64,000 nt of DNA, from positions 12,596 through 76,595 of the forward strand of contig JAUCBJ010006632.1 of NCBI GenBank assembly GCA_032718475.1. The letters are read 5' to 3'. A model generated the notes under the pieces. The model was not told where the DNA came from. It saw only the letters and a list, made by a program, of their open reading frames with translations, and did not search any database. The DNA comes from Nemertoderma westbladi (lineage: Eukaryota > Animalia > Xenacoelomorpha). This document shows positions 6,601-53,068 of the stretch, in pieces; the stretch's first letter is position 1, and each line of letters begins with the position of its first letter. The translations under genes were made by a program, and so were the position numbers.

Positions 6601-6609
6601 TCATCATCA

Positions 6610-11762: not shown

Positions 11763-11763
11763 A

Positions 11764-12602: not shown

Positions 12603-12603
12603 T

Positions 12604-16180: not shown

Positions 16181-16211
16181 CAACTTTATTGCTTACTGCA
16201 ATAAAGAAGCA

Positions 16212-16222
16212 ATATCCTTTAA
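16212..16222 (-). promoter_or_regulatory. Non-tRNA primer-binding site of B (TTAAAGGATAT), complementary to LTR segment 16966-16976
   Basis: Abuts the 5' LTR end; no TGG; perfect 11-nt inverted repeat with the LTR interior. Confidence 0.75.
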
Positions 16223-17416
16223 TGTTCGCGCTTTCAGACCTTTGGCAGTTTAACCCGCCAAATTAGGATGTCTTCTAGATATTAAATGGCCTTTTAGCCT
16301 ATGACAAGTATTTGATTCACTACACTAGTCGAAACCAATCTGTGCGCGATCATTCACCCGCTGGTTATACCCGGGAGATTGGGTTCGACGGCTTAATCTT
16401 ATTGCTATGTAAGCCTAATGTATTATTCGACTGACAGTATTATATAATCTCTGACAATATTATTCACCTTCGGGGAATATTAACAGTTCCTTTAGGACGT
16501 GGCGCTCTATCTATATAAACAGAGTTATGACTTAAACTACTCACAACGATATGGTTTAGTTATAATTCACATATATGGCGCATTCTTTAGGAAATGCTTC
16601 TTTAACAGACTCACTCATATACAATGCTGCACAATACTGCACACTAATCTGCCGATCTTCACTGATTTTAGTCACATATAAAAGGAACACAGACTGACTC
16701 ATGTAGGGTCTATCAAATAACATTCGATTCACTTCAAACCACTTTAACATAAGTCACAATCGTTTATCTGTAACCCTTCTCTCTTACCTTCGGTATATCA
16801 AGAATATTGGGTTTCGGGGTTATTTATCGTTATTCCAAATATAATAATTCATCAACCATATTATGAATAACTGACAGTAAATAGCAGTATAAAACAACAA
16901 CTGAACACTGATTGTTATGAGTTTGCAATGTTTCAGCAGTTTGTATGGTCAGATCAGGTCAGCAGTTAAAGGATATATGTCCTTATAATTAAACCTACTA
17001 GTGTTGGGCTAAAAAGCAGAAAAGCACAAAACACTACAAAGCCGTTCTTTCGTGGCTTTGAAACTCGTGACTACTACTCTATACGAGGATACCAACTACA
17101 CTTATTCCACGAAGCTCCCGTTCAACACAGAGAAAGAGCAGTGAGATAGGAAAAATTCAGTTCAGTAGCTCTGTGATAGGTCAAAATCAAGGCTAACTCA
17201 AATTCTATTGGGAGATACAAAAACAGGGCTATGACGCAACCTTCCTAGGCTGGTTGGCCGATTAAACAGAGCCCAGATACCTGCGTACAGCAAATCAGCC
17301 AATAAGCTGGTAGCTTGCACTATTTTAACTATAGATCCCTTTTTGAGTATTCTAGCGACCGGGGGGGAACTGGCCAGCAAAGCAAACGAACCAGTTATCC
17401 CACAAAAGCTTTTACA
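16223..17416 (-). repeat. 5' LTR of element B (1194 bp)
   Basis: Direct repeat of 807-2000; lies upstream of gag on the minus strand. Confidence 0.96.
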
Positions 17417-17421
17417 AACAT

Positions 17422-20312
17422 CAAACGGTATATATACATGGACAACAATTTAAAGTCCCTCCCATCGGTGGAAGAAGCCATTGATGTTGCTAAGGGAACG
17501 GTAGAGTGCTTGAAACGCGGTGGATTTAGACTAACCAAATTCACAAGAAACTCCCGTGAGTTTCTGGAATAGATCCCGGTGGAAGATCAAGGTGTTAAAG
17601 ATCTGGACCTTATCAAGGACGATCTTCCGAAAACCAAGACGCTTGGTTTGAAATGGGACACAGAGAGAGATATCCTGTTTTTCCAGCTAAAACGGCGAGA
17701 TAATCCAGTTTGAACTAAACGGATTTGTCTAAGTATCCTGAGCACTTATTTCGATCCATTGCGATTTATTAGCCCCGTTATATTGGTTGCTCGGAGATTA
17801 GTACAACAAATGTGGCTTGAAAACCACTCGTGGGACGATCCACTTAAGGGAGAACTACTAAAGAAGTGGATGAAATGGGAAGATTCTCTACCATCCATCG
17901 AGAACTTAACGATTTCCTGTTCATATTTTGGTCACGTTCTCCCCACATATTCCTAACAACTCCATGTGTTTGGAGACGCCAGCGATATGGGAATAGGTAT
18001 AGTAGCCTACCTGAGAGTTGAAACTCCGGTTGGAATTAAAGTTGCCTTGGTTACCTCTAAGGCCTTGATAAACAACAAACTACGAGTTCCTCGAGTGGAG
18101 TTGAAGGCGGCTCTATACGCTGAAGCCATCGGCCGGAATGTAACAGAACAGATCGACTATCCACTGGAGAAAACTGTCTATTGGACCGATGCTTTACTCG
18201 TTTTGGAGTATATAACCAATGAAGTCTGTCAGTTCAGCGTCTTTGTTACCAACAGAGTAGCCATTATACTTAGTCGCACTAATGTAGATCAATGGAGACA
18301 TTGCCCTGGGACGATTAATCCAGCCGACATCGCCCCCAGAGGAGCGACTCCCCAAGAACTGATAGATACTCCAGACTGGTTAGGTGGACCCGACTTCCTA
18401 AGTAAAGAAGAAGATGAATGGCATCCTCATCTTACCACGGCTGAGATTAGACAAGCCAAGGGACCAGAAAATGTCAAACCTAAAACCCGGGCAAGTAAAT
18501 TAAAGTTATTCAAACCCGTGATAGATCTGTCTGTACTACACATTTCTGGGGACGATGCTGTGGATCTCAACTCACCCGCCACCAATAAATCTGTTGTAGA
18601 AATCAGAGAAAGAGACTAGAAATCTGGAACACCAGACGTCTCGCAGGGACTCTCACCTCTCCTACAGAGAGCGATAAATCACTATAGTTCCTGGAATAGG
18701 CTTTGTAAGGCCGTCGTGTATTTAAAGCGATGCTTCCATCATTACTACTCCATGACAAAGATCGCTAGTGATACCGCTCCACTGACATCCGAGCAGGTCC
18801 ATGCTATTAAAGATCTTCCCAAATACAAAGTATCAGAGAGGTTTCTGACGGAGAAGATCAGTTACCAGGAGCATGAAGAAACCAATAAGCAGATGCTGAG
18901 ACTCCTACAATTCTATAAAGATTCCAATAAGTATTTCCTGTTGTTGAGAAATCCACAGACGCGCTTAAGGGATCGGATCGTTCTCTAGCACAATGATAGA
19001 TGGGATAATACGTGTTGGAGGGAGACTAACTAATGCTCCAGTATCCTTTGACACTAAGTTCCCCATACTCATTAGAAATCTTGAAATACAAATCAAGATG
19101 ATTGGAGATGTTCACAGTAGGCTTTACCATGCTGGTAGAGAACGAGTTCTTAGCGAAATTCGAACTTGCTATTATTTTCATAAACCCCGTAGAGCTCTCA
19201 ACCAAGTTCTTAGGAACTGTATACCCTGTAGGAAAGCATTTAGTAGGCCTTTAACACAGCGAGAGGCAGAATTACCTAGGGAACGAGTAAGCTTTTATGA
19301 ACCACCCTTTACTAATACCGGTGTGGATTTATTTGGCCCTATTGAAGTATATCGTGCTAGGACTATAGTCAAGCGATGGTGTGTCATCTTTGTCTGTATG
19401 ACTTGTAGAGCGATCCATCTAGATATGGTGAATGATCTATCTACCAACAGTTTCATACTGAGTTTACGCCGACAGATTGCTCGCTTTGGAACTAGCAACA
19501 CGCTGAGATCTGATAAGGGAACGAACTTCATTGGCGCCAATAATGAGATCAACGCTTACGTTAGAGATTGGAACCAAAGACAGGTGGACGATCAGCTAAG
19601 GGTAACAGCATCAACGCCGCCGATGCCCCTTGGTGGGGAGGAAGTTGGGAGAGATTGATAAGGAGCGTGAAGACCGCATTTCACTTTATAGTGCCTTGCC
19701 GCGCGTATCTCACCGATGAACTTTTTGCGGACGTTAATGGAGGAAATCGCTGCCTATCTTAACGAGAGACCGCTTATGCCAGTCTCATCCAGTCCCGACT
19801 CCCTAGAAGCGCTAACACCCGCGCATTTCTTACTGAAGAAACCTGTCGCCATGCTCCCACGATCGGAAATTACAGACGGAGACAAATACTGCCGACAAAC
19901 TTGGCAGCTTATGCAGTTGTTATCCCGTCGTTTTGCTGACTATTTCGAAAAACATTATCTGCCTATGCTACAACTTCGAACCAAATGGTTTGCGCAGCAG
20001 GAAAACGTCAGCGCCGGAGACATGGTACTTATTGTGGACTCAGATCTTTCACGTAAGCGGTGGCAGACAGGTCGTATAATCGAGACTCATCTGTCCGATG
20101 ATGGTTTAGTGCGATCGGTAGAACTCGTCGTCATGCGAAGTAACTTTAAGAAACCTGGAATTGTGTTCGAGACACAGCAACTCAACCGCCCAGTTGGTCG
20201 TTTATGTTTACTGGAAAGAGACAGAGTACTCTCCGGAAACTATGGAAGGCAAGATACTCCTCCCACGACCACCTCCCTAATCCAACAAACATCTAGGGAC
20301 TCCCCAACGTAA
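17422..20312 (+). pseudogene. pol: Element A pol continuation (RT C-terminus, RNase H, integrase) with several stops and frameshifts
   Basis: YMDN (vs YMDD in B), FGDAS, WRHCPGTINPAD, TGVDLFGP, SDKGTNF, WWGGSWER across several broken ORFs. Confidence 0.93.
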
Positions 20313-22018
20313 CAACGTACAGAGTGGGTGTGTGACTATACTATTTTATTTTATTTTTTTTTTTTTTATATTTATATATGTATTATTATGTAATTTTATT
20401 ATAATCGTTTTCTTTAATTTTATTTAGTAGAATGTTATTTTAGCGATTATTTAGTAGATTAGTGCAAAATATATATTCGTGTTTATTACTTAATACTTAT
20501 ATTATATATTTAGTTTAACTTTTAAAGCTTTAAAGCTTTCCTTACTGTCCGTATCATATTATAAATACGTGACTACAGTAAGATGAAATGTCCGTACTTA
20601 TTAAAGTACAATAAAACTCCTACTATATTCAAGTATTATTGGTAAGTACAGTATTAGGAATGCAAAGTTCAGATCCTCGTGTCTCGGCTAAACCAAGCTC
20701 TGGGTAGACCTTGGAAACGACTTGCCTCTTCTCACTGACATTGCTTCTTGCAATATTGCTCTCATACCGTATATTAAATAATACATATAGTAGCGTAATG
20801 TCCCTTTAACAGTAGCGTACAACGCAAAATAAATCTGTTAAACCCTTTGACCATCTGTAATTCTAGTCGATTAAGATATCGCAGCACCCACCGATATACT
20901 TGAAAGACAAAATTCTAGAATCAGTGGTTAACGTCCCCAGACAAGTTCTGGAATAAATTGGTGCCCATCTTAAATATTAATTATTTAATATTTACGAAAT
21001 CTATTTAGTCAAATACAATAGCGTAAACGCTAAGAAATTAAATCTAGAAAATCTACAAATTTAAATCTGTTACAATTTCGATCCTCTAAAAATTCTAGTC
21101 GATTAAGATATCGCAGCACTTACCGATACTCTTAAAAGACAAAGTTCTTCAAATTAAGGATCCTAGTCCCCAGACATGTTTGTTCTGGAATAAAATTTTT
21201 TTTTCTTTTTTAATATTAAATAATAAAATTTACAGGAATAAATTTAAATTCATATCCTCTCATGAATTTGATAAATTGTCATTTTATACAATTTATAACA
21301 TTCCCAAAATTACATTAATTAATAGATCATGGGAGCGGAGATTCACCCTATTAAGTATATTAGTGCACAAGAATCTCCAACATATAGTCAATAGCCGATA
21401 AAATTCGTAAAATCGTGTATAAAGGGGAATATTGACAATTAAAGAATTACTATAAAATAGCATCCCAGATCTGTATGCATGAGAATTACACTAATTCTAC
21501 TGCTATCTTTCCATAATGTCACCATAGCAACAACCACGTTAGAATTAGAAGCGAGTTAAAAGAACAATAGAAAGCTTGCCCCATTGAATAGCATACGGAA
21601 TAAATAGCACACTGCTAGTATCCAGGGATACATAATAATAACGTGGCATTCTGGAAGGCACTTGACTAACAGACAAATGGCCCGAATGTGTACAATTTGT
21701 GACAGTTGTGTGGAATTTGTGCGTTTATAGGTGAATGTTACTACTAAAGTGTGTTTACAGTAGCGAGTCGCAGTTGTGAAAGTTGCCCTACCTCTGTAGC
21801 AAGAACCTGAAGTAAATCTAAGCCCTTGGGACGGACAGTGGAGTGACTCGCGCTGGTTATTGTTGTCGTTGTATAGCTACTACGTTGGCGAGAGGCGCAG
21901 CAACGACAGTACATCAGCGCAGAGGATCTTGCCCTGCCGGGGGCATTGAGGGGTAGGCAGCGATGACCGCTAGCCTAATTATAATTAATTATAATATTGA
22001 TAAACTCATATAGCAGCT

Positions 22019-25000
22019 ATGACTGAGTTGATAGAAGATGATCTTGGTATCAGGGAGCGATATACCCTACCGTTGCAAGCGTTTGTTGATAGCTTAATAT
22101 GCGGCGACGATAGTCCCACTACTACGGAGGACGATGGCCGTTATATCGAACCGCCAATGTCGAAGGAACAACTCACGCGTGAATTGGACTATAGAAAATT
22201 CACCGCTCGCTATACACATCGTAATGGTACGTATATGGTCATCCTATCGATTTACACGATACGGACGATGTAGACACCGAAAGGGAAATGGTTCTATTTA
22301 AGTATCATACCCAGCGGAGTCGGAAAGATAAACCGAGAATCGAACACAAGAATTCTATTCGAAACCGACTCGAAAGAGAAGACGTTGAAGAGCCGGATAA
22401 ACGCAGTGACTTCAACGAATATCTGGAATTTTTGAGAGAAACATATCTCAATATTGCCAGTCAACAAAATCTAGAAACTCGATATCCTCAAGGTATACAT
22501 CATGACCCTATGATAGAACTCAAACGGCTCTATTTCACTATGATGTACCTTACCGCCGATCGACCGCTACCTGTTGTCCCGGATAGCTTCGAACAGATGG
22601 AGGAAATTGTAAAACTGGAGAACGATCACCCGCGTTTCCCCTACAGGACGTGCGTCTTTGGTATTATTGCGATGAATGCCCTAGACCCAACCAGCAAACG
22701 GAAAGACATAAACATCCGCGGAGACGTTGCACTAAACACAGTTTTACTCGCTATACTTACGGGAGTTTCGAGCGAAACTTGTTCGACGTATCACCCACGC
22801 TCGCTCGACTCAAACGATCCTTAAATAAACCCATGATCAGAGTTCCGGAATACTCGGTTAGACCTCCTCACTCCCTAGTAAGACCTCAAACTCTTGATCC
22901 TAATAGTATCACGGATCCTCCTGAACTGTATTCACTGTTCAAAGGTCTTGTGTTACCCGAACAATTAATCGGTGGCACTCCGGTAGTGGGCTCTCTAGAT
23001 ATTCGCCCATCCTACCTAGCCGGATTGGGACGCGGACATCTAATATCGCCGTTCAACCCATACAATCGTCCCGGTTTAACCCCGATACAACCCGTCACCA
23101 AAGTCAAGGAGAGCGTTATACGAAATGCGTTAGACTCTATTCGGCAGAAGATCGGAAAAGGAACTTACGATTGTTTAGAGAAACACAAATTGCAGCAACA
23201 AGTCCAAGCAGTGAAGGAGTTGGCCTTACCCCAGTTCGATCAAGAAATCAAGAACCTCGAGGAAGACATCGAACTTGGAGAAACCTATTCTCTACAAGAG
23301 TTTTTAAATGAACGCTTACAACGACAAGCGGAGGAAAATCAGCTCGAGGAGAAACACATCGAAATGGATGAGAGAGAAGAAGCAGCTTTAACCCAACCAG
23401 AAGCTCAAATCCTTATGACTGATCTCTATTCCAAAACCATCATTCATCCCTCAATGGTTCCCAATTTCGGAGACAAACTCTTCGCAACGGTACAACCCCA
23501 ACTGGTTGATATCAACCTAAGATCCCGAGATCTTATCGCTGACGCTCCTATGTTACAGTGTCTGCCAATCGAGGCCGCTTGTGTCGACGGTATACTCGTT
23601 GAACCTCCGGACAATCGAGCGGATCTTGTCCGTCGTATGGTACACGAGGTCAACATACGCGCTAGACCTTTACCAAACTCGTTTTATGGGATCAAAGACC
23701 ACCCTTATTATGTCAATCTAACTCAATATTATATGGTAAAACCTGAAGATCCGACACATAGTCTAAGGTTTCTACCACTAATAAATCCTCTCAACCTTGT
23801 CGAACTCGAACAATTGCAGAAACATCTGGATCAGTTAGTAAAAGTAAACTCATTCAGAAAACCCTACAATGTTTCCAGAATAGAGAAGGATATAACGACT
23901 CCATATAATCTCGATGGATTTATTAAAACTCGATTAGTCCATTGGAATCTCGACGTATTATTCGAGGAAGAGAGAATACAAAGATATGGAGATGTAGAGA
24001 CGTATACTATACAGTATGTGGCGAATGCGCCACCTTGTGGCATCCGGTGGGGATTACCCTAGAGAACGCCACTAAAGAGTGGAACAAAACTCTTAACATT
24101 ATCGAAATGTACGGAGTTGTCACTTATGATAACGAAGGTAGCGTTCCGGTCGGAGAACTGGGAACTACGCGCATGATACATATACGAGGACTATCTGGTT
24201 CTACCCACGTGTTTACTCGAGCGTGTTCCAACATGATTGATTATTCTTTTGAGACTCTCACCGAGATACAAAAGAAACTCCGACATGGACAATTCGAACT
24301 CGTGCAGCGTTACGTCACCAACACCGAGCGCAAACCGGCCATGGGTATTGATGGATTGATGTTACCCCAGCCCGTGCCGAGATGTTGTTTAACAAAAGAA
24401 TCCTTAAAATCGGCTCAGCTGTTTATGGAGATCTCCAAAACGACTTCAGGAACATGGAGAATATCCCATATCCTTTCGTAGATATCCAGCTGATTGCTCC
24501 CTGGGCAGAAGGCCGAGGTTTCTTTCGAACTATGTATGCCAATACACCCAGCGGCATCAATAAAGTACAACGAACCTCCATCGGACATCTTGCTTTTCAA
24601 GAATACGGATGGAATTTCAAAGTCAGAAACCCTATCAACTATCAACAAGTATATGGAGATCATTATTCTCGATTATACTTCGACGGACCATTGACCGCAC
24701 CTAGCGTCGTGTATAGCTTCATGAGCGTTCCACTTCGTCCCTCATTAGCTATATACACTATCTTCGAAAACGCCGCACTTGTCGGTTGGCTAGCCGATGT
24801 GTGCAGTCGTACTATACGCGCCCATCCCTTGATACTTGGAACTAAACTCGCCAAGCTAGATAAACACAATAAATTCATCCGCTTTGAATGTTTTAGGCGA
24901 TTCCTGACTCCGTTCCATAACGTTGATAGTCAGTTCAAGGACCGCGCTCTGACCAAGCTCAGCCAAAGAGACTCAGCTGCTGAGAAGTTAGACAGCGCTG

Positions 25001-25743
25001 GATTCGCCATTTTCAAAGACATTTGTATACAGAACTTACATTCCTCTGTTATACAAAGACCTCGAATCCCCATGGGTTATTCTATCGTGGAAGTTCAGAC
25101 ACTGGGTTCGCTTGAGGAGACAGCTACGCCTACCTCAGCTATGCAATTGGAAGACGAACCAATATGCTTAGAAACCGAGGAGATTCAGCCCACAGCGCCC
25201 CGGAGCAGAGACAACGACTACGTCTTGGAATGGTATCAAGGTCCACAATGTCTCACTGCGTACGATTATCAACATGCCAATTATGTTTCTAGGAAACGTT
25301 GCCGATTGTGCGCATCTTGAGACCATTTCACCCCGGAGTACTCCAACGTGCCCTGCTCCTACTTCCATGAACAGCCTATGATGGAGATCTATTGTGCATA
25401 TTGTAGACTCAATGACTTGCACATTTTCGCAGTCTGCCCCCAATTTATGACTCAATGCCATCATTGTCAGTTTAAAGGACATGCAAGTTTTGATTGCCCT
25501 TTCAATCGCGATCTGGAAAGCGTAGATGAAATGATTACCCTACGCTATATCCGAGCCTGGGAAGCAAACACAGATTTACATTGTGAGTCACGTCATCGCT
25601 ATTACCCTGGACGTGCCTACGAAGGGGTTTATGCATTCCACCCGTACCTATTCGCGTCCGTGGAACAAAAATCTTGCACGCCGAGTTACGAACTAATGAA
25701 GCGTGTTGGCGAGAATATTTCGACCAAATTTGTTCATAAATAA
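22019..25743 (+). pseudogene. Element A accessory ORF3: novel N-domain, DEDDy-type 3'-5' exonuclease and 3 CCHC knuckles (frameshifted)
   Basis: YDNEG (24124), LKIGSAVYGDL, FVDIQ, SIGHLAFQEYGWNFK, YTIFE; CRLCAS.DH..C, CAYCRLNDLHIFAVC, CHHCQFKGHASFDC; collinear with C 39677-43392. Confidence 0.82.
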
Positions 25744-25769
25744 ACTTATTAGGTTATGGGTTATGTATG

Positions 25770-26866: not shown

Positions 26867-26951
26867 TGAATTACAGAATTACCGGTAGTTTTTTTTTTGT
26901 AGGCCTATTTGTCTGTATGTGAATGTAGCCTTACTACACCAATATATGACT

Positions 26952-26956
26952 ATACG
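26952..26956. repeat. 5-bp TSD ATACG of element C (second copy 47194-47198)
   Basis: atacg|TGTTACGG and TTTATCA|atacg. Confidence 0.95.
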
Positions 26957-29140: not shown

Positions 29141-29150
29141 GTAATACGCG
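29141..29150 (+). promoter_or_regulatory. Non-tRNA primer-binding site of C (GTAATACGCG), complementary to LTR 28093-28102
   Basis: Abuts the LTR end, no TGG; exact 10-nt reverse complement CGCGTATTAC in both LTRs. Confidence 0.75.
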
Positions 29151-35530: not shown

Positions 35531-35545
35531 CTTCCACACCACTAT

Positions 35546-38500
35546 GTGACTCACCCTGACAAGCCAGACAAAGTCCGAGTAGTCAACGACTGCGCAGCAG
35601 TCTATAGAGGTATGTCCCTGAATTCAGAGTTGATGGATGGTCCCAACCTGAATAACTATTTGATTGGAATACTGTTGCGTTTTAGACAGCGGCGATTCGC
35701 ATTTACTTGTGACATCGAGGCGATGTTCCACCAGGTAAGAGCCTGTAAGGCAGACCAGGATAGCCTTCGATTTCTCTGGTTTGAGAATGAAGACTTATCC
35801 GGCCCAGTGGTTACATACCAAATGTACGTTAGGATATTTGGCGCCCGCGATAGTCCGAATGGCACGCTGTTCGTTCTAAAGAAAACGGCAACAGCCCAGA
35901 TTGGTAAGTACCCAGTAGAAGTAATCGAGTCCATCTTGAGAAACTTCTATATGGACGACGGATTGGTGTCCAAGGACACAGCGGAACAAGCCATAGAAGT
36001 GGCTCACGGCCTGCAAGAGTGCTTGGCTACAGGGGGTTTTCCTCTAACCAAGTTCACTACTAACTCGGAGGCCCTATTAGAATCGTTCCCGGTAAAAGAT
36101 CGCGGGAGCGGAGACATTGAATTGGGGGTAGAACCAATCCCCATGGCGCGAGTACTGGGACTCGCTTGGAATCCGAACTCGGATAAGTTCCAGGTAAGAG
36201 TTAGATTTGAGCCCAGTAGCCCAGACAAAGTTTTGACAAAGAGAATTTGCTTATCGACATTAAGTAGACTATTTGACCCGATGAACTTTATCAGTCCGGT
36301 TATATTACAGGCACGAGCGTGCATGAGGAAAATTTGGTTGTCCGACTTAGAGTGGGACGAACCAATATCTCCTATACATGCAAAGCAGTGGAGGGAGTGG
36401 GAAGCCGAGTTGCATCTATTGAAAAATATAGATGTACCCCGTTCCTACTTTCCGAATCAGCTGGTATTTCCAGCTGATTTAGAACTGCATTTATTTAGTG
36501 ACCGGCTTTGGTATGGTAGCCTACCTTCGCCGAGAGGTAAGTCAGGACAAATTTGAGACGGCCTTTGTGACTTCTAGATCAAAGACAATGCCGGTCAAAT
36601 ATATGACTGTCCCTCGTGCAGAGTTACAGGCGGCTGTAGTTTCGGTCGAGGTAAGTAAGCAAATAACTGAGGAGTTAGACACGACATTGACCTTATTCTA
36701 TTGGACGGACGCATCCTTGGTGTTAGTATACATTGCGGCCGACAATATTGCACTAAAGACATTTGTGGCCAATAGACGCGCTCAGATCGTTGATTTTTCG
36801 ACGAAGGAACAATGGAGACATTGTCCGGGAGTGTTGAACCCGGCCGACATAACTTCGAGAGGTGCAATGCCGGCGGAATTCTGTCGGGAAGAGTCGCAGG
36901 AGTTTTGGTTGCATGGACCTGATTTTCTAACGAGGACACAGGAACATTGGCCAGAGCGACTAAAGATAGTGACCAATCCGATGCCTGAAGATGCAGAAGT
37001 CAAGGTGGAGAAAGTCTCTAAGTCGAAGTCTAAAGCCAAACTTAAGTCATTGGAGCGGCCTGAAGAGTCATTGGAGCGGCCTGAAGAATCATTGGAGCGG
37101 CCCGGAGACCTGTCAGACCAACAGACTTACGTGACTACTAGGTCCGGAAGGGTAAGTTATGACGTAAAACCACCCTTACAGACTAAACCAGAGTCACAGT
37201 TGGTAAGTGACGGACAGAAAATGACCGACACAATGGAGTCTTTGGTTTCCAAACCTGCGGGTTTGGATTCGAAACTTCCATTAGTTAGCGGACAACCGTC
37301 GCTGGCATTAGAGTCATGCAGTATTTATGACAAATTACTAAATTCGTCTGCCTCTTGGCTGACAATTTGTAAAAGAACTGCGTGGTTAAGCCGATACGTT
37401 TCGTACCTTTGTTTAAAACATTCGAAACATTTGAGAGAACCATTGAGCACCAATAGTGAGCGAATTCAGAAATTGAAACAACCTCTGACAGAGGATGAGA
37501 TTGATCAAGCGGAATTAAAGCATTTGAAGCATTATCAAATGTGTGCCTTCCCGAAAGAATTCCATCTATTATCGGCTCATCGACCAGTTCTCTATAAACC
37601 CCTTAGAAAATGGAGTCCATTAATCCATAAGGGTTTAATTTGTCATAGATCGAGAATCCAGACTGTCGACATAAACTCACAGTTTAGGTTCCCAGTGATA
37701 ATCCCTAGTCACCCAATAGAATTGCAAAGAGCGATTCTATGGGATATACACAAGAGGTTGCATCACGCGGGAAAGTTACACTGTCTGTCGGCAGCGAGAC
37801 AGCGATTCATTCTATTGCAGCCAAGCAGGGCAGTAGGCACTATGTACGACGCCTGTCTGGTTTGCAAGAGAGTGAACGCCAGAGTATTGGAACAGGAGAT
37901 GGCTGAACTCCCGGAAGCGAGAGTGCAGGCATATGACCCACCCTTTACGAATACAGGGGTGGACTGTTTTGGTCCGATTGAAGCAAAGAGTGGACGGCTG
38001 ACCCACAAGCGATGGGGTCTGCTACTGACATGTATGGCCAGTAGAGCCATACACATCGAGCGTGTGGCAGACATGTCGACCAAATCTCTGCTCCTGGCCT
38101 TAAAGAGATTTATGGCCAGGAGAGGACTAGTAAAGGCGTTCTACTCTGACAAGGGTACAAACTTTGTCGGAGGGAATAGCGAGTTGAACGCGGCTCATAA
38201 AGCAGCACAGAATAAGGAAATTTCTGCAGCACTTTTGCCGCAACGAGTAGAATGGAGATTCAATACTCCAGAAAGTCCTTGGAGAGGAGGAAGTTGGGAG
38301 CGTTTGGTTCGCTCTGTGAAGCAGGCCATTGCCAAAACATTGCCTGTGAACAAACAACTTACCGACGACGAACTGGTCACAGCTTTTATTGAAATCGAGC
38401 ATACCCTAAACTCGAGGCCGATAGCTATGTTGCCAGACGGTGTTGCATTAACGCCGAATCATTTGCTAATGCAGAGTCCAGCATTTCTTGTGCCGGCATC

Positions 38501-38912
38501 AGAACCCATTAGTGCCGACCTATATAGTCGTAAGAGCTGGAAAGTAACACAGTTTGTGGCGTACACATTCTGGGAATATTGGCGGGAATACTATCTTCCC
38601 ACCATATCCACCAGAACAAAGTGGTACAAAACGGTTCGGAGTCTCCAAAGGGGAGATTACGTGTTGATAACCGAACCCATTGTCAAGAGAAAGTATTGGG
38701 AGACGGGAGTGATCTTGCACACACACCCAGACGTGCAAAACATAGTGCGCACAGTCACTGTGAAAATTAGGTGCAAGTGTCCGCACCCAAAAAAGTGTAA
38801 AACTAATGGTTTACACACCTTGGACCGACCGGTCCAAGATATTGTGTTATTAGAGGAGACACGTATCGAGACGGGAGATTATAATTTGTCTCCTGCCTCA
38901 AAACTGAATTAG
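35546..38912 (+). pseudogene. pol: C pol (RT, RNase H, integrase); frameshifting deletion in the RNase H FSDAS motif near 36500
   Basis: GPNLNN, DIEAMFHQV, FYMDD, LHLFSD|GFGMVAYLR, NPADITSRG, TGVDCFGP, SDKGTNF, WRGGSWERL. Confidence 0.92.
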
Positions 38913-39676
38913 TGTTGGACGCAACTCACTTCGTATGCATTCCTCGTATGCAAATACAAGGAAATGCATAGGAGCGGGGTTGTGGTGATTTGCGTTGAGT
39001 TTTGTCTGGTGGGTATCAAAACAAAATTTTATTTCAAAAATTTTGGAAAAAATTAGAAAATTTTAAAAATTAGAAGTGAACCCAAGACAATTCCAGACGC
39101 TGTGTATAGACGCGTTTTAGAATTCGTCTATAGATAAACAGTAATTTGAAAAGTCGTGAAGCCTGGAAAATAGCATTTAGAAACCATGGTGACGGCTATA
39201 TTACGTAGGAGTGTAAATTGAGTTTAGCAACTTCCACAGATTGGTGCCAACAGTGCAACTAAGGTGCTAAAGGTTAGTAGCACCAGAGGGGTGCACGGAC
39301 CCCACTCAGTAGTTTGCAGGATGTGTGATGTTCGATTATCAAACCTGTGGGTTTGGTATAGTCGAGTATTGTGGCTATAGTCCTTTCTAACTACTGTAGT
39401 TTAGTACGAGTAATGGGAGTAGTTTGGGCATCAAAAAGTGAGTTGGTCACGGCCAGTTTATCTCCAAAGTTTTTGCGCTATGCATGGGAATAGGTTAGAG
39501 GATAGTTAGTTAGGAAGAGACGGGATCTAGAGAGTCGAACCTGAACTGCTGGAAGGCGGGGGGGGGGGGTTCGGGAGGTCTGTCCTTCGGCGACATCTAA
39601 CTGATTTACCCACAGTGTAGTTGGTTACGTAACGGCACTTATTGGGATATATATATATGTATATACGCGTAACATA

Positions 39677-42600
39677 ATGGAGAGGGATATTAGAGCGCAA
39701 CCGCGCAGAGGATTTACTGCCAGAGAGGAGGCGGAGCTACCATTCGCGCGACCAGGATGTAAAGACTCTAACGTTTACTACCATGGGCGGTCCGTGATGG
39801 AGCTGAACGGGAAGTATAAACCAAGTTATGATAAAGAATTACGGAGAGAAAGAATGAGAGCGTTGGGGGACCGGATGGAAGTCTTGCGGAGAGAGTATCG
39901 CACGCGGTATCCCTACGACTTTGCTTTGGACGTGTGCGACATTAGCGCAGATCCGGACGAGGAAATCGCACGACTATACCATATGAATATGTATTTACGA
40001 CATGAGGAGCCTCTACCTGCAGTCCGAGACCAGTTCGACGGAATGCACCTGTATCGGAGGACTCGAGGCGAGGATCAGGAGACGCCGAAAGTCTTCAGCG
40101 TATACAAGCTCTTCTACAAGTGTGGTGAATGCATGAATAAACAGGACGTGGCGATTCCCGACCGATTAGACGAGCAACATCCGGAACCGATATTAACGCG
40201 ATGTCCAGCTCACCAATTCCTTAGATACAACGAGGGAGGTTACCTGATGAGCAACCCGATGATCAGTATCGACTTCAGTGGAAAGCGACCTCCGAGACCC
40301 ATTACGCCGACCGTTACGACATTAGATCCGTATACGGAGATTAAACCCTGTTCGACACCCAGTTTGATAGAGACGGCAGCGGCCATTTTGCTGTACCGAT
40401 CCTACAAGGATCTAGAGGCGCGGCGCGAAGCGGCGCGGGACTCGGGTACCAAACCCGTGGGTTTGGAGCTCTCGAGTCCCTGGACTGCGTTTACTTCACC
40501 TCACCGAGTGAGAAGCCTCACACCTGAGCATCAGGACGACATAGACGCGTTGCGGCAGGAGGAGCGAGTGGCGAAGGCGAAAGAGTTATCAGGATAGCTA
40601 CTTATTAACAGGATAGCGGAGTATAATAAGACCGCGGATAGACATCAAGAGGAGACGAGGAGAGTGACCGGATTTGTTCCACAGGTCGTATCTCAACCCG
40701 GACCGGTGTATTATTCCGACGGCACCGAACCTGCGATATTAGTAGATCATCCGGAGTCGCGAGAAGCGATACGATGAAGATGGTAAGAATGGCGGACCAT
40801 TGGAACGTTGACTGTCTACGGGAAGTTTTATGCGCGAAGTTCTTGCGTGATGTCCCAATGCAGATCACAGATTACGACACTTTGGACAAGATTGGAGCTC
40901 CGGGGAAGGAGAGTAAGTTATTCGGATGGTTGGATAAGTACATCAAGGTATGGGTCGCGGTGGCTACATTCCCAGATGACGAGGAAGTAGACCAGACGTG
41001 GCTGAGGAGGAAGGGTTCTTATACCCGATATGATGACCACAAGGCGATCGAGCGCATGTGGACCCCATCAGATGAGATTCAGCGTCAGTGGAGGAAAACG
41101 GAGGAATCACTGCAGGATTGGAGAGTGATGTTCTACGACAATGAAGGAGGGTCCCATCAGGAATGCTTGACTAGCAAGTGTATTCAAATTCGTGCGGCCG
41201 ATGGTGTGACTCATGTGTTTATGCGTGTGAGGGCGGATCGAGAGAGACCGGAGCCCATCATAACGACACAATATCGGAAAGGGAAGGATCCTAGGGAACA
41301 GATTTTGGAGGTATGCAGGCGAGGAGGTATGCACGGAGCGGAGCGTATCGACGCCAGGATGTTACCAAAGAAGGTTAGAGAGGCTATTCTCAACCAAGAT
41401 TACGTCAAGGTGGGATCGGGAGTCCAGAGCGATTTGGAGAGCGACTTCAACGCCATGACTGATCTGGAAGATAGATTGCCGAGACCGTTTGTCGACACCA
41501 AGCTATTGTTGCTATGGGCACAGGATATTGGAATTTATAGGGAGTATCCCAACTCTGCCAAGACTGGTATGGGCTTTATAGCACACTTGTTGTATAATTG
41601 GGACTTTAAGTTGAAGACGCAAAAGAAGTACGAGGAGGCGTATGGCGAATACAACACGCCACCGGGAGCGGAGTTCAAATCCCACTTCAAGCGGCAAGCG
41701 TTAGTGTATTGGAACATTTGCGCGCCACCCCGTGCGTCGCTACAATATTATTTGGTGCTTGAGTCGAACACGGTGACTTGTTTATTAGCGGATATCGTTG
41801 CGCGAGTTTTGAAGCGTCATCCATTGGTATTCGGAGGAGATCAATACGTTCGCTCGAAAGGGGGAATCCAATCCGACGTGATGAAGCGTTTCTTAACCCC
41901 GTTCTTCAACCAATCGTTAGAGAATACGTCGATGGTGAGGAGAGGATTAGCGATATTCGAAGGAGTATATCGACAGAACATCGGAGATTTGGGAGACCGA
42001 CCGTCGATGGAATATCCGACGCCAGAAGCTTTGGAGAAGTGGTTCGGGAATCAAACCCGCGGGTTTGGTACTCCCTTCCACTCGGAGGCTGATAGACCTG
42101 TTAAGGAGGGCTGGCCGGAAACGTTAGTAGAGGTGTTCGGAGTAGATCTTCCGGTGGAGAAGACATATCCGAAACGAACGCGGGAGGAAATATTGGAGAT
42201 AGAGGACAAGGGCGAGGATGTTTACTTTGTTCCGGATCGACAACCGTTGACCGGAGAGGACGACATCGTATTAGACATTGGGAAGGAAGGAAGTGCGAAA
42301 CCGATTGGAGACCTCATATACGAGAGGGCCTGGTTTCCACAAGCGCGTAGGTGCAAATTGTGCGGCAGCACAAGGCACAATCTAAAGTCGTGCGACGCGG
42401 TAATAGAGGCGGCGCATAAGGTCTGTCGTTGGTGCAATGAGACCGACCATTCGTTTCACACGTGCACCGTCTTCATTTCTCAATGTGGATATTGTGGAGT
42501 AAAAGGACACCGTAGCGCGAGATGTCAGCTGCGAGATGATTCCTTTCAAAACCATAGCGCTAACCTACTTCGGGTGATGTTAGATAAGTGGGAGAGTGTG

Positions 42601-43392
42601 GCGGATTACCATATTCAAGCGCAGATGCGTTGGTTACCATTTAAAGCGGGATATGGGTTTTGGGCGGTAGACCCATCGCATGTTGCGTACGAGCCATATC
42701 TACAATCGCTACCACAATATCAGGAGCTCATCCTAACTGCTCAAGACCTTCCACAGAACACTGGAGTTATCGTAGTCCGAGAATACTTCAGACAATTGAA
42801 CATGGACAATAAGTACACATGGAACTTCGTTGCTATTTGCGATCGCATCACGAAGGGTGTATTTACGGAGACTAGAAAAGTGGTACGCGCGCGAGGTGAT
42901 TGGAGGATGGCGGCTATACAATACCGCAACGAATTCTTGTTGACTCATGTGCCAGTGGGTTCATTGACCGCCGAGAGGATACAGGAACAAAGGATCGCAG
43001 CGACCACAGCGACGACCGCTGGAGCTCAAGGCTCGCGGAAAGAACCAGGAGGAGGGGTCCAAGACAAGCGTCAAGTCAAGGACGACCACTACCACTCCAT
43101 TATAGAAGCTCAACGGTTGCAGCGCAAGGCGCAGGGGGCGTCTGAGAAAGCGCGTGTGCAACTGCAGAAGGAAGAGTTGGCGGAAGCGACCACGGGAGCG
43201 CGACAATTGGGACGAGGCCGAGGGAGAAGTTCAAGCCGAGAATCTGTCGGGGCTCAGGGAACGTCGTCGCCGGTTCCGGGGAGTGACGCCTCACGGACGC
43301 CGTCAACGGAGTCGACTAGAGGTAGATTAGTGTATCTGGGAAGGGGACGAAAGAGAGGAGCGAGCCCAAAGAACCCAGGAGCGGGTCGATAA
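39677..43392 (+). CDS. C accessory ORF3 (~1240 aa if repaired): novel N-domain, DEDDy-type exonuclease, 3 CCHC knuckles, basic tail; one stop (40595) and one frameshift (~40770)
   Basis: FYDNEG, CIQIR, LP..VREAILNQDYVKVGSGVQSDL, FVDTK, GMGFIAHLLYNWDFK, YYLVLE; CKLCGSTRHNLKSC, CRWCNETDHSFHTC, CGYCGVKGHRSARC; the inter-ORF segment ILVDHPESRE matches A ILVEPPDNRA. Confidence 0.85.
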
Positions 43393-45005
43393 TACATTAT
43401 GGCACAGGGCGACAGACTCTAGATATATACATCATCGTCGCTCTGATGTATATTGTAGCATTTGAAAATTTTCGACTAGACTCGTACCTAAAGAGGTGAG
43501 GTCTCTATAGGGGTGCGAGTAACAGGCGGCGGCGGACTCGTGAGGGTCTGGGGGCACGTTAAACACTAGTCTAAGTGCAAGGGAGATACTGATGGCCCTC
43601 GTGTCTAGCGAACCATGAATTGCCATGGTGCCGTGGTTCCGTCTAGTCGGCATGTTGCCGTACTGCCAGTCCTGTACACAGTAGGGGTGGTGGCATGGCG
43701 TGATTTGTGGTGTCATGTGGTGTGAACTGTGGTTTGTATGTGGGCGATCAGTGGCAGTTGCTTGGGGCTCGGATGGGTTCCTTTGGCCATCAGCTGTTCC
43801 GTTTTTTTGATACTATATGTTATTGTCTCCATGTTCAGCTGATTGGTTTTTGGGATTTGTTTGGGCCTTTGAGTTTTCTGTTGCTGTGGGTACGTGAGTA
43901 CACGTGATTGTGTGTATGGCCACTGCGAGTGAGTGTGGGAAACCTTGCCGGTTGGACAAGACGCCGCTGGTATTAGTAGGACCATACTTTACTGCGCCCC
44001 AGCATACTTTGTGCACACAAGTTATTTTACCTTGTCGGTAAAATAAAGTACTCTCGACTTTCTCATTCTCTCTCAAGTCGATACAACTAGTCCCTCCCGA
44101 TTTTGACACCGATTTTGTCTTTCACGATTATGTCCTCTGTGTGTGCATGGTATGTGTCCGATTTTGTGTTTACCGTAGTGTACTTGATATTGTGAACATC
44201 TGTTGAGTACACGTGTATAGGACTGGTAAGTGGTTACTTGTTCCTAGCTTTCGAGCTAGTCAGTATTGTTTGTGGAACTTACTTCCCCTCAATACTGCCG
44301 GCGAGGCGGGTGAAAACGTGTCAATATTCCATGTTGGGTAGCACAAGCCCACTTGGGACAAGACCGTCGGTTAGGCCCAAGGGCGACCTTGGTGCTTGAT
44401 CGCTATCGACTGGTCCACCCGCCGGTTGACTCTCTGAGTTGGCTCAATGTACAGTCAGGCCACAGTAAGTTGACAGTAGCCGCCCATCTGGCTACACGTT
44501 CGACGAGCTGTGCCGGTGTGATCGGGGAATTGAAAATTGAACCCGGGAAGCATCGGGCCATCCCCCGGCCCGGTCTGATAATAACATCAGTCAGACTGGC
44601 CCCAGGGGTGGTGGAAACACGTCCGCCTCGTGGGTGCGCCTCGGGGAGGAGCCCAGAAGGACGTAAGCGATACACTAGTTGAGTTATTTGAATTTATATT
44701 ATGAAAGAGGCGAAGGAAGTGATTGGGGAGACAAACCTGCAGGTTTGGCTTACTCCTTTCACTTGCCCTAGCAAAATTTTTATATTTGATTTTGTATGTA
44801 GTAATCATTATGTAGTAAGAATGAACGAGAAACAATATTTTGTAAATTTAATTTGTATGTAATTCATTATGCAATATCTATGGCAATATTTGTAAATAGT
44901 AGAATTATTATGTTATTTAGATTGGTTGGAAGAAATTTATTTTGTTTTGTATACATCACCTTATACTCTTCTACAATTGGAGGGAAACATTATATGATTT
45001 CCCTT

Positions 45006-45012
45006 GGAGCGG
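45006..45012 (+). promoter_or_regulatory. Short PPT of C (GGAGCGG)
   Basis: Abuts the 3' LTR; same ending as B. Confidence 0.65.
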
Positions 45013-47193
45013 TGTTACGGTATATGGCGCTGTATCCACAGTATTAGTCCATTATGCAGTATGCAGTATTAGTCCATTATGCAGTATGCAGTATTAGTCC
45101 GTTATACTGTACGTAATATTAGTCCGTTGTGCAGTATAATTATTTAGATAAGGCGCAGTGTGGTGACATTTAGGTAAGGAAGTTAAAACGCCCATATATT
45201 TTGCATCCATTCATTTTGTATAGTATGTAGCCCTACCTACGTAATTTTGTATTAGGATATATGTAGATAGTTCCAGGGTTGCGAGTTTACTCGGACCCTG
45301 GATTTTGTGCTTGCTGATATTAGTTTGATAGGGCTAGCATATAGGGACGCTGTCCTGGCCATTCAGCAGCCAGAGACGTGATCCATTACCATATATGGTA
45401 ATAATTTGAGGGCATAGGGCTACAATCCGGTCTCCTTATTGGATTAACTGCTTCCAGGTTGGTTTAATGCTAGCATGGACTGGAGAGCCAATGGGAGAGC
45501 GATTGAGTCACCTTATTGCATCACCCCATCGGGATCACCTATAAATTGGCGGTGTGCCGGTAGGGCCTTTTGTTGTTCATATGTTCATGCCTTATCACAT
45601 GACACACCCCTGTTACAATTTACTTGCTGAGCTGTCTCTAATTTTGTATTAGGATATCGTATTTTCTGCAATTTGCTAATTTTGATTAATTTCTTGGAAT
45701 GATTTGCTAGTACGATTACTTTGCTTGTGTTTCTCAATAATTCCTTCGATTACTGCAAATTACAATCGAACTATGATTTCTACCTTTGATTGATGGTTCT
45801 ATGTGATTCTTTTCTGCGCAATAATCCCAAGGGATTCCTGAGACTGTCAGACTTTGTGATTTGCATGCGCCGCTACGGTAGCTATTAGCATCATGGAGGG
45901 CTAAGGTGCCAGTGGGCGGTGGGCGCATCGGGGGGTTGAGCGACTAGGAGAGAGCGGAGGATTCAAAGCGGGCAACGCTGGCCAGGGTCACCGTTGCGGG
46001 CGGGTATCTTGCACTGCGGCACGCAGACCGATCGCCGGTACAGTATCTAGGGGGCTGATGATCCAGGTTTTGTCTCTATTTAGTATTAGGGGGGCAGGAA
46101 TTGGGTTAGTTAGGAATCCTAGATGTACCCGGGAGAGGCCTGCGCGTATTACAACGTTGAGTGTGGAGTACGAGTAGTGAATTGCACAATTGTAAACTGT
46201 GATTTCTAACGCTGATTGGTGTGTTATTGAAGTGTGCCTAAGATTACGAATGCTTAGATAGGCGCTCTTTTCCTTTGATTGATTTCTATTTCTTAGTTAC
46301 AATAATTAGTTATTGTTTAGGTCAAAGTAATACGGCAATTTAGGCTATTACTAGCGAAACCTGTTGCGTGATAAATTAGAATTACGTATTCTGGAACTCT
46401 TAGTAATTAGTACGCTGTTAAATATTTGTGACTGTAATTAATTAGTAAAAAATTAAGAATTAGTACGCAGCATAGCGGAGAGTAGCTAAGGTAATAATTA
46501 GTGTACTGTAAACTATTCACGCTGAGCGGTTATTTGCATTAGCGGGCAATCAGCTAGAACGCACTATTCGGTACGCACGATACGCTAGTAATTTTGCTGG
46601 CCTAAAGCCAGTCGCGGGCAGTTTTAGACTCGGAGTGGTATTATCCACGTAGAAACAGATACTGTACCATTTTGATATTTTAAATATTCTCGCATTCACA
46701 CATTACGTTAGGGAACCTCCAGTATTCGCGATTAGAAAGACGTAGGTAATAGCGTGCTTTAATAGTGATAGAATTAGGCGTAAGAATACTCTGAGTGCAA
46801 GGCCTCTCGCACTCGTCTTAAGTAAGCTTAGGGAGCCGACTCGGGTTTATTGTTTTGGTTATTCATGCGTGGCTCATAGATTCGAACAGTTAGCTCTCTA
46901 TCGAGCAATCGGTAGAGAAAGGAACAAGCGATTTTGCAGGAGTTGTGTAAATTTAGTAAAATATATTAGCGGACGGCAGATTAGCGCCATCTAACGGTAA
47001 GTAGCGGTTTGTATTTAGCAACCCTTACAATTTAGTAATATCACGCTCCTGAGCCCCTTTACTTAACAGTAGAGCAGTCTTTGTGTCTGACGAGTGGTTA
47101 GACGAGAACTTATTAGGTTGGCAGAAGGATATTAACGGGTATTGGTCTGTTCAACAGTTCTGCTGTTAGTATAGAGGTCGCGGTTGTTTATCA
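45013..47193 (+). repeat. 3' LTR of C (2181 bp)
   Basis: Direct repeat of 26957-29140. Confidence 0.96.
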
Positions 47194-47258
47194 ATACGAG
47201 TAGGCACTTTACTGAGAAGCCACAATGGGGCAATAACTGAGACAACCTGAGTTCCATT

Positions 47259-47267
47259 ACTGCGCCA
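47259..47267 (-). promoter_or_regulatory. Canonical tRNA PBS of Gypsy element E (TGGCGCAGT, tRNA-Ser-like)
   Basis: Minus strand reads ..CATACCA|TGGCGCAGT, upstream of E gag once C is removed. Confidence 0.65.
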
Positions 47268-47500
47268 TGGTATGTTTTGTATAATCTTATCCAACGATAT
47301 CAAAAACATATGTTCAGTTAACCAGTACAGCAGTGTATTTCAGTAGTTATAAAGATTTAAGATATCTGACTGTCAACCACACAGAATACCTAAATATAAT
47401 ATATGTATATATCTTTACAGCCCGGACTGGTACCCAATCACCTGTACCGCTTACACATACCGTTATACAGTATGATAATTGTATAATATTACATATCACA
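47268..47500 (-). repeat. Probable 5' LTR of Gypsy element E
   Basis: Minus-strand TGTGATATG...CATACCA termini next to the PBS; no partner LTR in the window, so the outer boundary is tentative. Confidence 0.5.
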
Positions 47501-48123
47501 CCAGTGTTGTAATGTTTGAGGACAGGGGTAGTGATAAGTATCCCTTTACATACAGAACAGTGCAATAATAGTAATGTTCTAGAACTTTCGCAAAGACGCG
47601 ACGCTTCTACCTACAGAATACCGCCGGATTTCCTATACAAATCGAGGCGAAAATGTAAAACTGGAAACCTCTTCTCTTATCATGACAACCGACATCAGTC
47701 GCGCGACTACGGGGTTTATTTCGACGAGAAGTTTGGGAAGTTTAAATCATACGGAGATAAGCGGCAGCATCTGTCTGCGAACCACATCGAGTGGGTGAGT
47801 GACACAGCTGTGCGAGGTACCCAGCCCTACACGTCGGTTTACCGGAGGAGTTTCAACCGAGTCTTGTCTGTAACCCCGGATACTACCGCGGGGATATCGC
47901 TTGATATCCCTCCTGTATTCCGGGCCGCCACGTCGGAATCATTCCGAACCCACTCCCGCTCCCCCCGTAGTCAGGGCGACTGATCGCTCGGAATATATCC
48001 GGGTTGGTATGACAGCTCCTTTTCCGGTTCATTTAGGACTCCTCTTTGCTCCCTCACTTTGGCAAAGGAACCGTTCCAGAAATAACTGGCGATATTCAAA
48101 CAGAGGCGTTAAAATATAATAGG

Positions 48124-48128
48124 ATTTA
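48124..48128. repeat. 5-bp TSD ATTTA of element D (second copy 61068-61072)
   Basis: attta|TGTTAGC and GTCACA|attta. Confidence 0.95.
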
Positions 48129-48671
48129 TGTTAGCTTAACCAATTCCGCTAACACAAACCCATAGAGTGAACCGTTAAGCAATATTGGGAGCACGAGGTT
48201 GATTACCAATATCAACCTCCACCAAGGTGGGAAGGAGAGACACACACACAATAGGGGTCAGGGGTTACTCCCCTGAAAGGAGAGAGAACAACAGGGGCAA
48301 GGGGAAACACACCAGGGAAGGTGAAAGGGCGACAAGTAGGATATTAGCCAATCAGGGGGGGAGCATCGGCTGAGTAGCGTAACTTGGCCAACTGTGCAAT
48401 ATATTATCATTTACTCAGTGTATCATCCAGTCAGTGTATCATTTGGTGTTAGTTAGGTTAGTTTAGCTAGGGAAGTACCGGGACTTTAATCACCATTTCC
48501 CGCCTTCCGTTTACTATATTACCAATTCTATATTATAATCATTTATCTATACTATTATACCCAAAGATTATATACGACGAACAACACAAACTCTTTTCAC
48601 CTTTCACACACGGCGGGGACGCGTAGATTAACAAACCGGATAAACCGGGATCCTTCGTGGATCCTGTCACA
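48129..48671 (+). repeat. 5' LTR of D (543 bp)
   Basis: TG..CA; repeat of 60514-61067. Confidence 0.95.
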
Positions 48672-48680
48672 GTGATTAAA
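48672..48680 (+). promoter_or_regulatory. Non-tRNA primer-binding site of D (GTGATTAAA), complementary to LTR 48485-48493
   Basis: Abuts the LTR end, no TGG; exact 9-nt reverse complement TTTAATCAC in both LTRs. Confidence 0.72.
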
Positions 48681-48807
48681 TCGGAGCTGCTACCCTAGTT
48701 AACTAAACTCGAGCAGCTACTACAGTGATTAAAACCCAAGCAGCCGCCCCTAGTTGAACAGTGACTACCAGCCACCAATCTAAAGTACACAGAAGAGCCA
48801 AAGAAAG

Positions 48808-53062: not shown

Positions 53063-53068
53063 TGGGCT

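Follow-up and report, generated by a model that had tools for sequence, protein, structure and literature searches.

In a 64,000-nucleotide stretch of the Nemertoderma westbladi genome (assembly GCA_032718475.1, contig JAUCBJ010006632.1, forward-strand positions 12,596 to 76,595; the window), three BEL/Pao long terminal repeat (LTR) retrotransposons, B, C and D, carry at the primer-binding-site (PBS) position a sequence complementary to a segment of their own LTR. We propose that these elements, and a broad BEL/Pao lineage with them, prime minus-strand synthesis with their own RNA in the manner of Tf1, a reading to which we assign a probability of about 0.7. That the primer is the element's own RNA in one of the three forms weighed below is very likely. 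An LTR element requires a minus-strand primer beside U5, the unique region at the 5' LTR end; the segment is read as a self-primer because it is the sole complement at the PBS position, has the polarity and position of a primer, and no tRNA site is present.

LTR pairs in the window were delimited by self-BLAST, and target-site duplications (TSDs), TG...CA ends and polypurine tracts (PPTs) were then checked. Three pairs came out, one for each of B, C and D; all have TG...CA termini, and each element has a PPT and a TSD of 5 bp (Table 1). Directly behind the 5' LTR, with neither a spacer nor a TGG, stand 11 (B), 10 (C) and 9 (D) nt that, once reverse-complemented, reproduce exactly a sense-strand segment in that element's own LTR. 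Both LTRs of each element contain the segment, whose 3' base pairs with the base immediately following the LTR CA. The original prediction, made from the letters of the window, was therefore correct in all coordinates of the segments and PBS positions, in the exact complementarity and primer geometry, and in the absence of a tRNA-type PBS from B, C and D, no TGG being present in the 9 nt that follow the LTR. None of the window PBS 8-mers occurred in a table of tRNA 3' ends from the supplement of an eLife 2026 paper, a table that does not extend to internal tRNA fragments.

In dinucleotide shuffles of each LTR (5000 trials per element), the observed match length was reached 7 (B), 16 (C) and 28 (D) times, giving a joint probability of ∼2.5e-8. 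Such matches were about 2-5 times commoner than the prediction had estimated (3e-4, 2e-3 and 2e-3), but the joint value is still small. Other leader positions reached the observed length at 1 (B), 5 (C) and 2 (D) of 899 offsets, some of them duplicated PBS copies, and each window PBS fitted the other two LTRs over just 4-6 nt. Past a 3-nt bulge, four more pairs (one G-U) are possible for the D segment. A spliced extension of the match was tried for B, C and D and rejected, the best spliced matches being 6, 8 and 6 nt. Bases 12-21 after the B LTR (16202-16211, minus strand) form a second 10-nt match to B's own LTR at position ∼822, in an order that is wrong for splicing.

Pfam assigned Peptidase_A17, DUF5641 and Integrase_H2C2 to B, C and D, and DUF1759 to B and C, in agreement with the BEL/Pao identity first proposed. 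All three elements have the Belpaoviridae domain set in the order protease (PR), reverse transcriptase (RT), RNase H (RH) and integrase (IN), along with the TG...CA LTRs, PPT and TSD of that family, and those listed among the 848 protein homologs mostly share the same Pfam set. The 18-nt tRNA PBS described by the International Committee on Taxonomy of Viruses (ICTV) is absent from B, C and D. We file them in Belpaoviridae because of their proteins, despite this departure. The possibility that they are misfiled Tf1-like chromoviruses was rejected, since their Pfam domains are those of BEL/Pao; they do not have the Ty3/gypsy chromovirus RT and IN that mark Tf1/sushi.

A scan of metagenome contigs yielded 80 BEL/Pao loci with 37-43% RT identity to C; a viral contig collection scanned for relatives returned none. 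Thirty-three of the 80 were tested, and after four duplicates and one locus without an LTR had been dropped, 28 families remained. The other 47 lacked an LTR end, a PBS or a readable LTR, duplicated tested families, or were unexamined. Where both LTR ends were visible, TGG was almost never present behind the LTR. Several loci had contiguous self-matches of 9-12 nt, and in most others the LTR holds a predicted GTAAG...YAG intron whose exon-exon junction is the complement of the PBS. We applied a fixed test to 31 elements (three from the window plus the 28 families), allowing PBS offsets of 0-5 and a match that was either contiguous or joined across any GT-AG pair 40-1500 nt apart. A match of at least 10 nt to the own LTR was found in 28 of the 31 (21 spliced, 7 contiguous), compared with 39 of 930 cross-pairs and 34 of 930 shuffles; the elements below 10 nt were D (9 nt), L007 (8 nt) and L021, which has a tRNA-Tyr-like site. 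Five false splice-signal pairs gave 1-4 of 31 as opposed to 21 of 31 for GT-AG. The best donor, in a search that allowed any GT, was GTAAG in 18 of 21 cases (one a tie) versus 34 of 943 GT sites, and a GTAAG-only test was passed by 18 of 28 relatives versus 5 of 756 cross-pairs. Among relatives whose LTR end is fixed exactly by two LTR copies, 10 of 11 passed. TGG lay within 9 nt of the LTR in one of the 31 elements, at the site resembling tRNA-Tyr; 27 of the 28 relatives lack it there. The first 9 PBS bases differed in 28 of 29 elements, the complementarity being conserved across families with different letters. These results uphold the claim that three unrelated PBSs each fit their own LTR, but not the notion that the trait is peculiar to B, C and D, as it marks a broad BEL/Pao lineage.

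A held-out set of 15 further loci (L081-L095) included 10 without two LTR ends around the BEL open reading frame (ORF). Three of the five with both ends passed the fixed test (L084, L085 and L090), each with an 11-nt spliced match; L095 is a member of the L014 family that escaped because the alignment ended too early. When all ends were scanned, L083 and L092 gave spliced matches of 11 nt and L086 a contiguous one of the same length; these were not counted, as the scan also gave spurious matches in repeats (L092, L093). These 15 loci are animal BEL/Pao contigs filed within prokaryote metagenome-assembled genomes, probably as host contamination. The sisters L084 and L085, 85% identical in the LTR and 78% inside the element, differ at two bases at the end of exon 1 and at both partner bases of the PBS; the paired changes amount to direct covariation across the intron. 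Thus, both the comparison of relatives with shuffled controls and the search for covariation that the original prediction had proposed came out in its favor, and the self-priming reading of B, C and D is supported at the level of sequence.

Chance matches selected post hoc were also considered. By itself, the D match has p ∼0.006, and the freedom allowed in offsets and junctions brings false positives up to ∼4% per pair. Against that rate stand the 28 of 31 passing elements, the donor enrichment, the held-out replication and the compensatory changes. The cross-pair, shuffle, donor, held-out and covariation controls rule this explanation out, and we regard its probability as negligible. Alternatively, the pairing could be a regulatory RNA structure serving packaging, polyadenylation or translation control, with another host RNA, for example a tRNA fragment, as the true primer. 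Half-tRNA primers exist in copia elements (PMC6317226; here and below, this source, PMC4600332 and PMC5408684 are cited from excerpts), and the leaders also carry hairpins and duplicated PBS-like copies. A regulatory role does not explain why 28 different 9-mers each fit their own LTR with primer polarity 0-4 nt from the LTR end, and no host RNA could change in step with the exon junction of each family. We consider this explanation very improbable.

The predicted primers share an anatomy. Their 3' end is AC (21) or AT (6) in 27 of 29 elements, and an A-pyrimidine end followed by C or G occurs in 24 of 29 (background 0.046), D among them; this conserved pattern points to a defined cut. The spacer between LTR and PBS measures 0, 2, 3 or 4 nt. 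Spliced primers would be 10-15 nt long with 3-8 bases in exon 2, and the introns span 71-423 nt. In 22 of 26 relatives the primer is followed, after 3-93 nt, by AATAAA or ATTAAA, and because this poly(A) signal comes so soon, we place the primer of the relatives in R, the repeated region of the RNA ends. Past a small bulge, a second helix of at least 4 Watson-Crick pairs is found in 10 of 29 elements versus 42 of 812 cross-pairs (0 and 1 of 5000 in two permutation tests). In L012/L018 the spliced duplex, which includes G-U pairs, reaches −22.3 kcal/mol versus −4.3 kcal/mol unspliced. The second helix and this G-U duplex argue for selection on RNA pairing.

From these sequences we infer the following course of transcription, splicing, cutting and priming. 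Transcription would start at or upstream of the segment, and the segment, in the presumed R region of the RNA, would pair with the PBS position in Tf1 style. A cut just after its last base, probably made by the element's RNase H, would free a 3' end for reverse transcriptase; RNase H reportedly takes part in Tf1 priming. In most relatives a GT-AG intron of the LTR would be spliced from the primer-donating RNA, so that splicing itself builds the primer, and the cut would fall after the AC or AU within exon 2. Minus-strand strong-stop DNA would copy only U5 and the part of R downstream of the cut. Because the cut would lie just inside exon 2 and strong-stop DNA would skip the intron, the intron would be inherited from the unspliced 3' R. 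Intron-less progeny, such as L017, L020, L026, L033 and L043, would result when a spliced 3' R is copied; the ancestors of B, C and D may have arisen likewise. On a wider scale, a widespread animal BEL/Pao lineage would have swapped the tRNA primer for its own RNA, with the primer of the main branch assembled by the host spliceosome from two LTR exons. Splicing of one LTR copy with the intron kept in the other would serve as the step that licenses reverse transcription, and intron-less forms like B, C and D would arise repeatedly from copied, fully spliced RNA. We hold this history to be moderately probable.

In three RT/RH trees with outgroup proteins, the third built under a mixture model, the window elements grouped with the metagenome loci, to the exclusion of insect Pao-like proteins, with support of 98-99; a single fluke protein fell inside this clade, and B, C and D sat on long basal branches. 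A single self-priming clade was compatible with the trees (approximately unbiased (AU) test, p = 0.178, which does not demonstrate it), and B, C, D and their relatives may share one origin of self-priming. The intron-less L017, L043 and L026, and L020 together with L033, are nested among spliced relatives, which needs four changes, and GT[AG]AG is wholly absent from the LTR in three of the five; such nesting is expected if spliced RNA is sometimes copied. In B, C and D the intron may have been lost, never present or moved. Polypyrimidine-TAG acceptor-like sites lie at 17009 (minus strand; B, 33 nt upstream of the segment) and at 28027 (C, 66 nt upstream), and an LTR intron may end there, which we note as a lead only.

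Several observations weigh against Tf1-like self-priming as proposed here. The fixed test is failed by L007 and by the held-out L089 (8 nt, although by eye 11 positions align with a single mismatch), and the LTR end of the other 17 of 28 relatives was placed by eye, often with the match already seen. In two trees, L021 and L037 fell between the window elements and the spliced clade (without clear placement in the mixture-model tree); both lack an LTR intron and have a tRNA-Tyr-like PBS behind a 5-nt spacer (L021 56-75, L037 18-37), and their tRNA primer was either retained or regained. The B primer ends in AA, and the base following the C primer is A, so that neither conforms to the pattern at the predicted cut. 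Neither AATAAA nor ATTAAA is present in the LTRs of B, C and D, so that their R is unplaced, and the pol genes of all three are interrupted. In folding predictions the helix exceeded a probability of 0.5 in only 12 of 20 spliced relatives (at most 0.42 unspliced). For B and C it reached 0.89 and 0.94 if the RNA starts at the segment but fell to 0-0.16 with 40-70 nt of upstream LTR, and for D it was never above 0.23. For the elements of the window themselves, this low prediction of the helix is the chief weak point. Folding would favor a primer made of the first mRNA bases in B and C; in the relatives, the upstream helix and the spliced first exons argue against it.

The predicted masking of the in-cis helix in B-D would fit a short, separate transcript, begun, spliced and terminated within a 5' or solo LTR, which would take the place of a tRNA by annealing in trans to the unspliced genomic RNA. 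Such a transcript offers the simplest account of how the intron survives alongside required splicing, and the poly(A) signal does lie close behind the primer. A 3' cut would still be needed, however, and the recurrent loss of the intron shows that copying extends to spliced genomic RNAs. We judge a primer supplied in trans to be rather improbable.

Another source of primer to be weighed is the RNA 3' end, and here an accessory ORF matters. Behind pol, A, C and D have a homologous ORF3 whose alignment shows DEDDy-like motifs, which we take to be ExoI (D-x-E), ExoII (D) and ExoIII (Y-x3-D/E), and CCHC knuckles; the 3' accessory ORF of B is mostly missing. Language-model (Atlas) features matched PF01612 at 0.92-0.93 in 25 of 30 and 30 of 30 hits, and a profile search gave a weak match to RNase D (E 0.68). 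Pfam returned no hit on the window ORF3 proteins, and one ORF3 homolog was found among 1.8 billion representatives. AlphaFold models were of low confidence (predicted local distance difference test score, 32-33), and a PDB search with C ORF3 gave weak zinc-knuckle and VP4 matches only. We treat the assignment of ORF3 as a putative DEDDy-like exonuclease as a lead.

If the primer came from the 3' end, the (spliced) 3' R segment would pair with the PBS and be cut or trimmed to the duplex, in the window elements possibly by ORF3, and the intron would come from the unspliced 5' R. This is in keeping with the presence of the segment in both LTRs and its place upstream of the poly(A) signal in the same 22 of 26 relatives, with the 3'-5' exonuclease-like ORF of A, C and D, and with the second helix, which shows primer RNA reaching 5' of the core match. 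Yet the distance from pol to PPT is ∼0.1-0.4 kb in most relatives; since these compact elements have no room for ORF3, it is unnecessary for the self-priming trait, and no exonuclease is needed. Moreover, the fixed A-pyrimidine end would better fit an endonucleolytic site than trimming, and Tf1, the described precedent, uses the 5' copy. We therefore consider a 3'-end primer unlikely and retain the Tf1-like scheme.

Contigs of four public sequencing runs, which give neither RNA start nor expression, were aligned to the B LTR. A variant at 16211 made up ∼87-90% of depth in two deep runs (219294/252940 and 421028/470241) and adds a twelfth pair to the duplex of PBS and segment; among the 40 of 99 variants listed, none lay inside the B PBS or segment. 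Immediately 3' of the segment, contig depth was 6-10 times lower, and in two runs loose ends lay 4 nt beyond it, which suggests that the B segment was kept where its downstream neighborhood was replaced. No intron-type joint was present in the B LTR among the 4 joints listed there (window-wide, 15 of 136 contig joints were listed). An A-rich loose end at 21230 (run X4) lies in the AT-rich spacer of A between pol and ORF3 and is possibly an internal poly(A) site, and a form skipping 22371-25149 was present in contigs of runs X4 and X5.

The remaining features of the window are as follows. Positions 1-47193 hold nested insertions: B lies inside its own older relative A (TSD ATGTT), for which no B-like LTR was found within the window, and C lies inside E (TSD ATACG). 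The gag end of E abuts the truncated end of A near 25720. E had been called a gypsy element with a normal TGG PBS; the TGG-type site held up, matching a tRNA-Ser 3' end over 9 nt, but the gypsy identity is tentative, the gag-like ORF on which it rests having no Pfam hit. The two C LTRs differ by a 6-nt tandem duplication (28087-28092), lacking in the 3' LTR, exactly at the 5' edge of the primer segment; priming or strand transfer may have left it as a scar. In the leaders of C and D (29272-29316 and 48722-48733) the LTR end and PBS are repeated, and a hairpin stands directly behind the PBS in B, C and D. ORFs without a Pfam match lie between pol and ORF3 in C (39605-40597) and A (22587-24062) and upstream of B gag-pol (12544-13998). 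A host exon for a fibrinogen C-terminal domain, with an upstream 3' splice site, occupies 62051-62779 (minus strand). ARAGORN and Rfam gave no match on the window.

Table 1. Positions of the BEL/Pao elements and their predicted priming features in the window
Feature	Position	Strand	Remarks
Element B 5' LTR, 1194 bp, TG...CA	17416-16223	−	99.8% identical to 2000-807; TSD ATGTT
B 3' LTR	2000-807	−	segment copy 1560-1550; PPT 2016-2001
B predicted self-primer segment	16976-16966	−	LTR positions 441-451
B PBS-position sequence, 11 nt	16212-16222	−	reverse complement of B segment
B gag-pol, interrupted	5038-13998	−	DUF1759, protease, RT, Peptidase_A17/RNase H, integrase, DUF5641
Element C 5' LTR, 2184 bp	26957-29140	+	TSD ATACG
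C 3' LTR	45013-47193	+	99.1% identical to 5' LTR; segment copy 46143-46152; PPT 44997-45012
C predicted self-primer segment	28093-28102	+	LTR positions 1137-1146
C PBS-position sequence, 10 nt	29141-29150	+	
C leader, second PBS-like copy (LTR end and PBS duplicated)	29277-29288	+	12 nt pair with 3' LTR form of segment
C gag-pol, interrupted	30467-38912	+	
C accessory ORF3	40642-43392	+	DEDDy-like 3'-5' exonuclease motifs, CCHC knuckles
Element D 5' LTR, 543 bp	48129-48671	+	TSD ATTTA
D 3' LTR	60514-61067	+	96.4% identical to 5' LTR; segment copy 60881-60889; PPT 60498-60513
D predicted self-primer segment	48485-48493	+	LTR positions 357-365
D PBS-position sequence, 9 nt	48672-48680	+	second copy 48725-48733
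D gag-pol, interrupted	50918-56128	+	
D accessory ORF3 pieces	57119-59794	+	DEDDy-like motifs, CCHC knuckles
Element A, older B-like copy (83%), split by B insertion	17417-25720 and 1-806	+	keeps ORF3 pieces
A ORF3 region	23927-25700		
Element E TGG-type PBS	47259-47267	−	tRNA-Ser-like over 9 nt; internal comparison

Self-primed reverse transcription is established for Tf1 and Tj1, in which the primer is the mRNA 5' end and is contiguous in the DNA (PMC4600332; PMC6317226), and has been predicted from PBS-LTR complementarity for Tcn1 (gypsy) and for TAR/Houba/Osr-1 (copia) (PMC6317226). The original prediction was right that self-priming is known for the Tf1/sushi group, to which these further predicted cases are to be added; since it has also been inferred for these other elements, self-priming arose more than once. 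According to the ICTV profile, the PBS of Belpaoviridae is 18 nt long and serves host tRNA-Arg or tRNA-Gly, their genomes measure 4.2-10 kb and their LTRs 0.2-1.2 kb, and their replication is poorly understood (PMC8742986). The words PBS, primer, tRNA and priming are absent from De la Chaux 2011, as are PBS, primer and intron from Thomas-Bulle 2018, and BEL/Pao self-priming is unmentioned in the available parts of Copeland 2005, Benachenhou 2013, the annelid, Culex and zebrafish surveys and the eLife 2026 paper. Neither BEL/Pao self-priming nor a spliced primer was reported in the full-text literature searched, which did not extend to Repbase, GyDB, subscription papers or bioRxiv supplements, where the feature may be mentioned. 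What appears to be new, then, is the occurrence in Belpaoviridae of sequence signatures of Tf1-like self-priming, contiguous in the window and apparently built by splicing in most relatives.

If this reading is true, a large part of Belpaoviridae uses no tRNA, contrary to the ICTV profile; self-priming is present in all three LTR-retrotransposon superfamilies; and splicing directly builds a replication primer, which is described nowhere in the literature searched. The elements would be freed from control by tRNA-derived fragments, and their mobility would be tied to the regulation of splicing. The reading would likewise account for the failure of tRNA-end-based PBS finders to detect these elements. 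Sharp predictions follow from it for the splice position, for the site of the cut (behind AC/AU, 3-8 nt inside exon 2) and for the LTR copy that retains the intron.

The accessory ORF behind pol, with its RNase D-like motifs, recalls the ORF3 of the bdelloid Juno/Vesta LTR retrotransposons and of Athena, which encodes a DEDDy exonuclease; the excerpt of that source describes it for these bdelloid elements and not for BEL/Pao (PMC5408684). Unlike theirs, the BEL/Pao ORF3 carries CCHC knuckles and is assigned by motifs and features only. The window elements resemble ICTV Belpaoviridae in their Gag-PR-RT-RH-IN order, TG...CA LTRs, PPT and animal host (PMC8742986) and differ from them in the missing tRNA site, in their length of 12.9-20.2 kb and in the 2.2-kb LTR of C. 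Tcn1 and TAR/Houba/Osr-1 are plant or fungal elements of other superfamilies, for which the excerpt of PMC6317226 does not mention a spliced primer. The closest likeness is to Tf1, Tf2 and Tj1 of Tf1/sushi: as in these, the PBS stands directly behind the 5' LTR and is complementary, with primer polarity, to the element's own LTR RNA (∼11 nt in Tf1), a tRNA site is absent (PMC4600332; PMC6317226), and a cut would be required to free the 3' OH. The BEL/Pao lineage differs from Tf1 in belonging to Belpaoviridae and not to the Ty3/gypsy chromoviruses, in a pairing that continues 5' past a bulge, in a spacer of up to 4 nt before the PBS and, in 21 of 28 BEL/Pao relatives, in a predicted intron that splits the primer.

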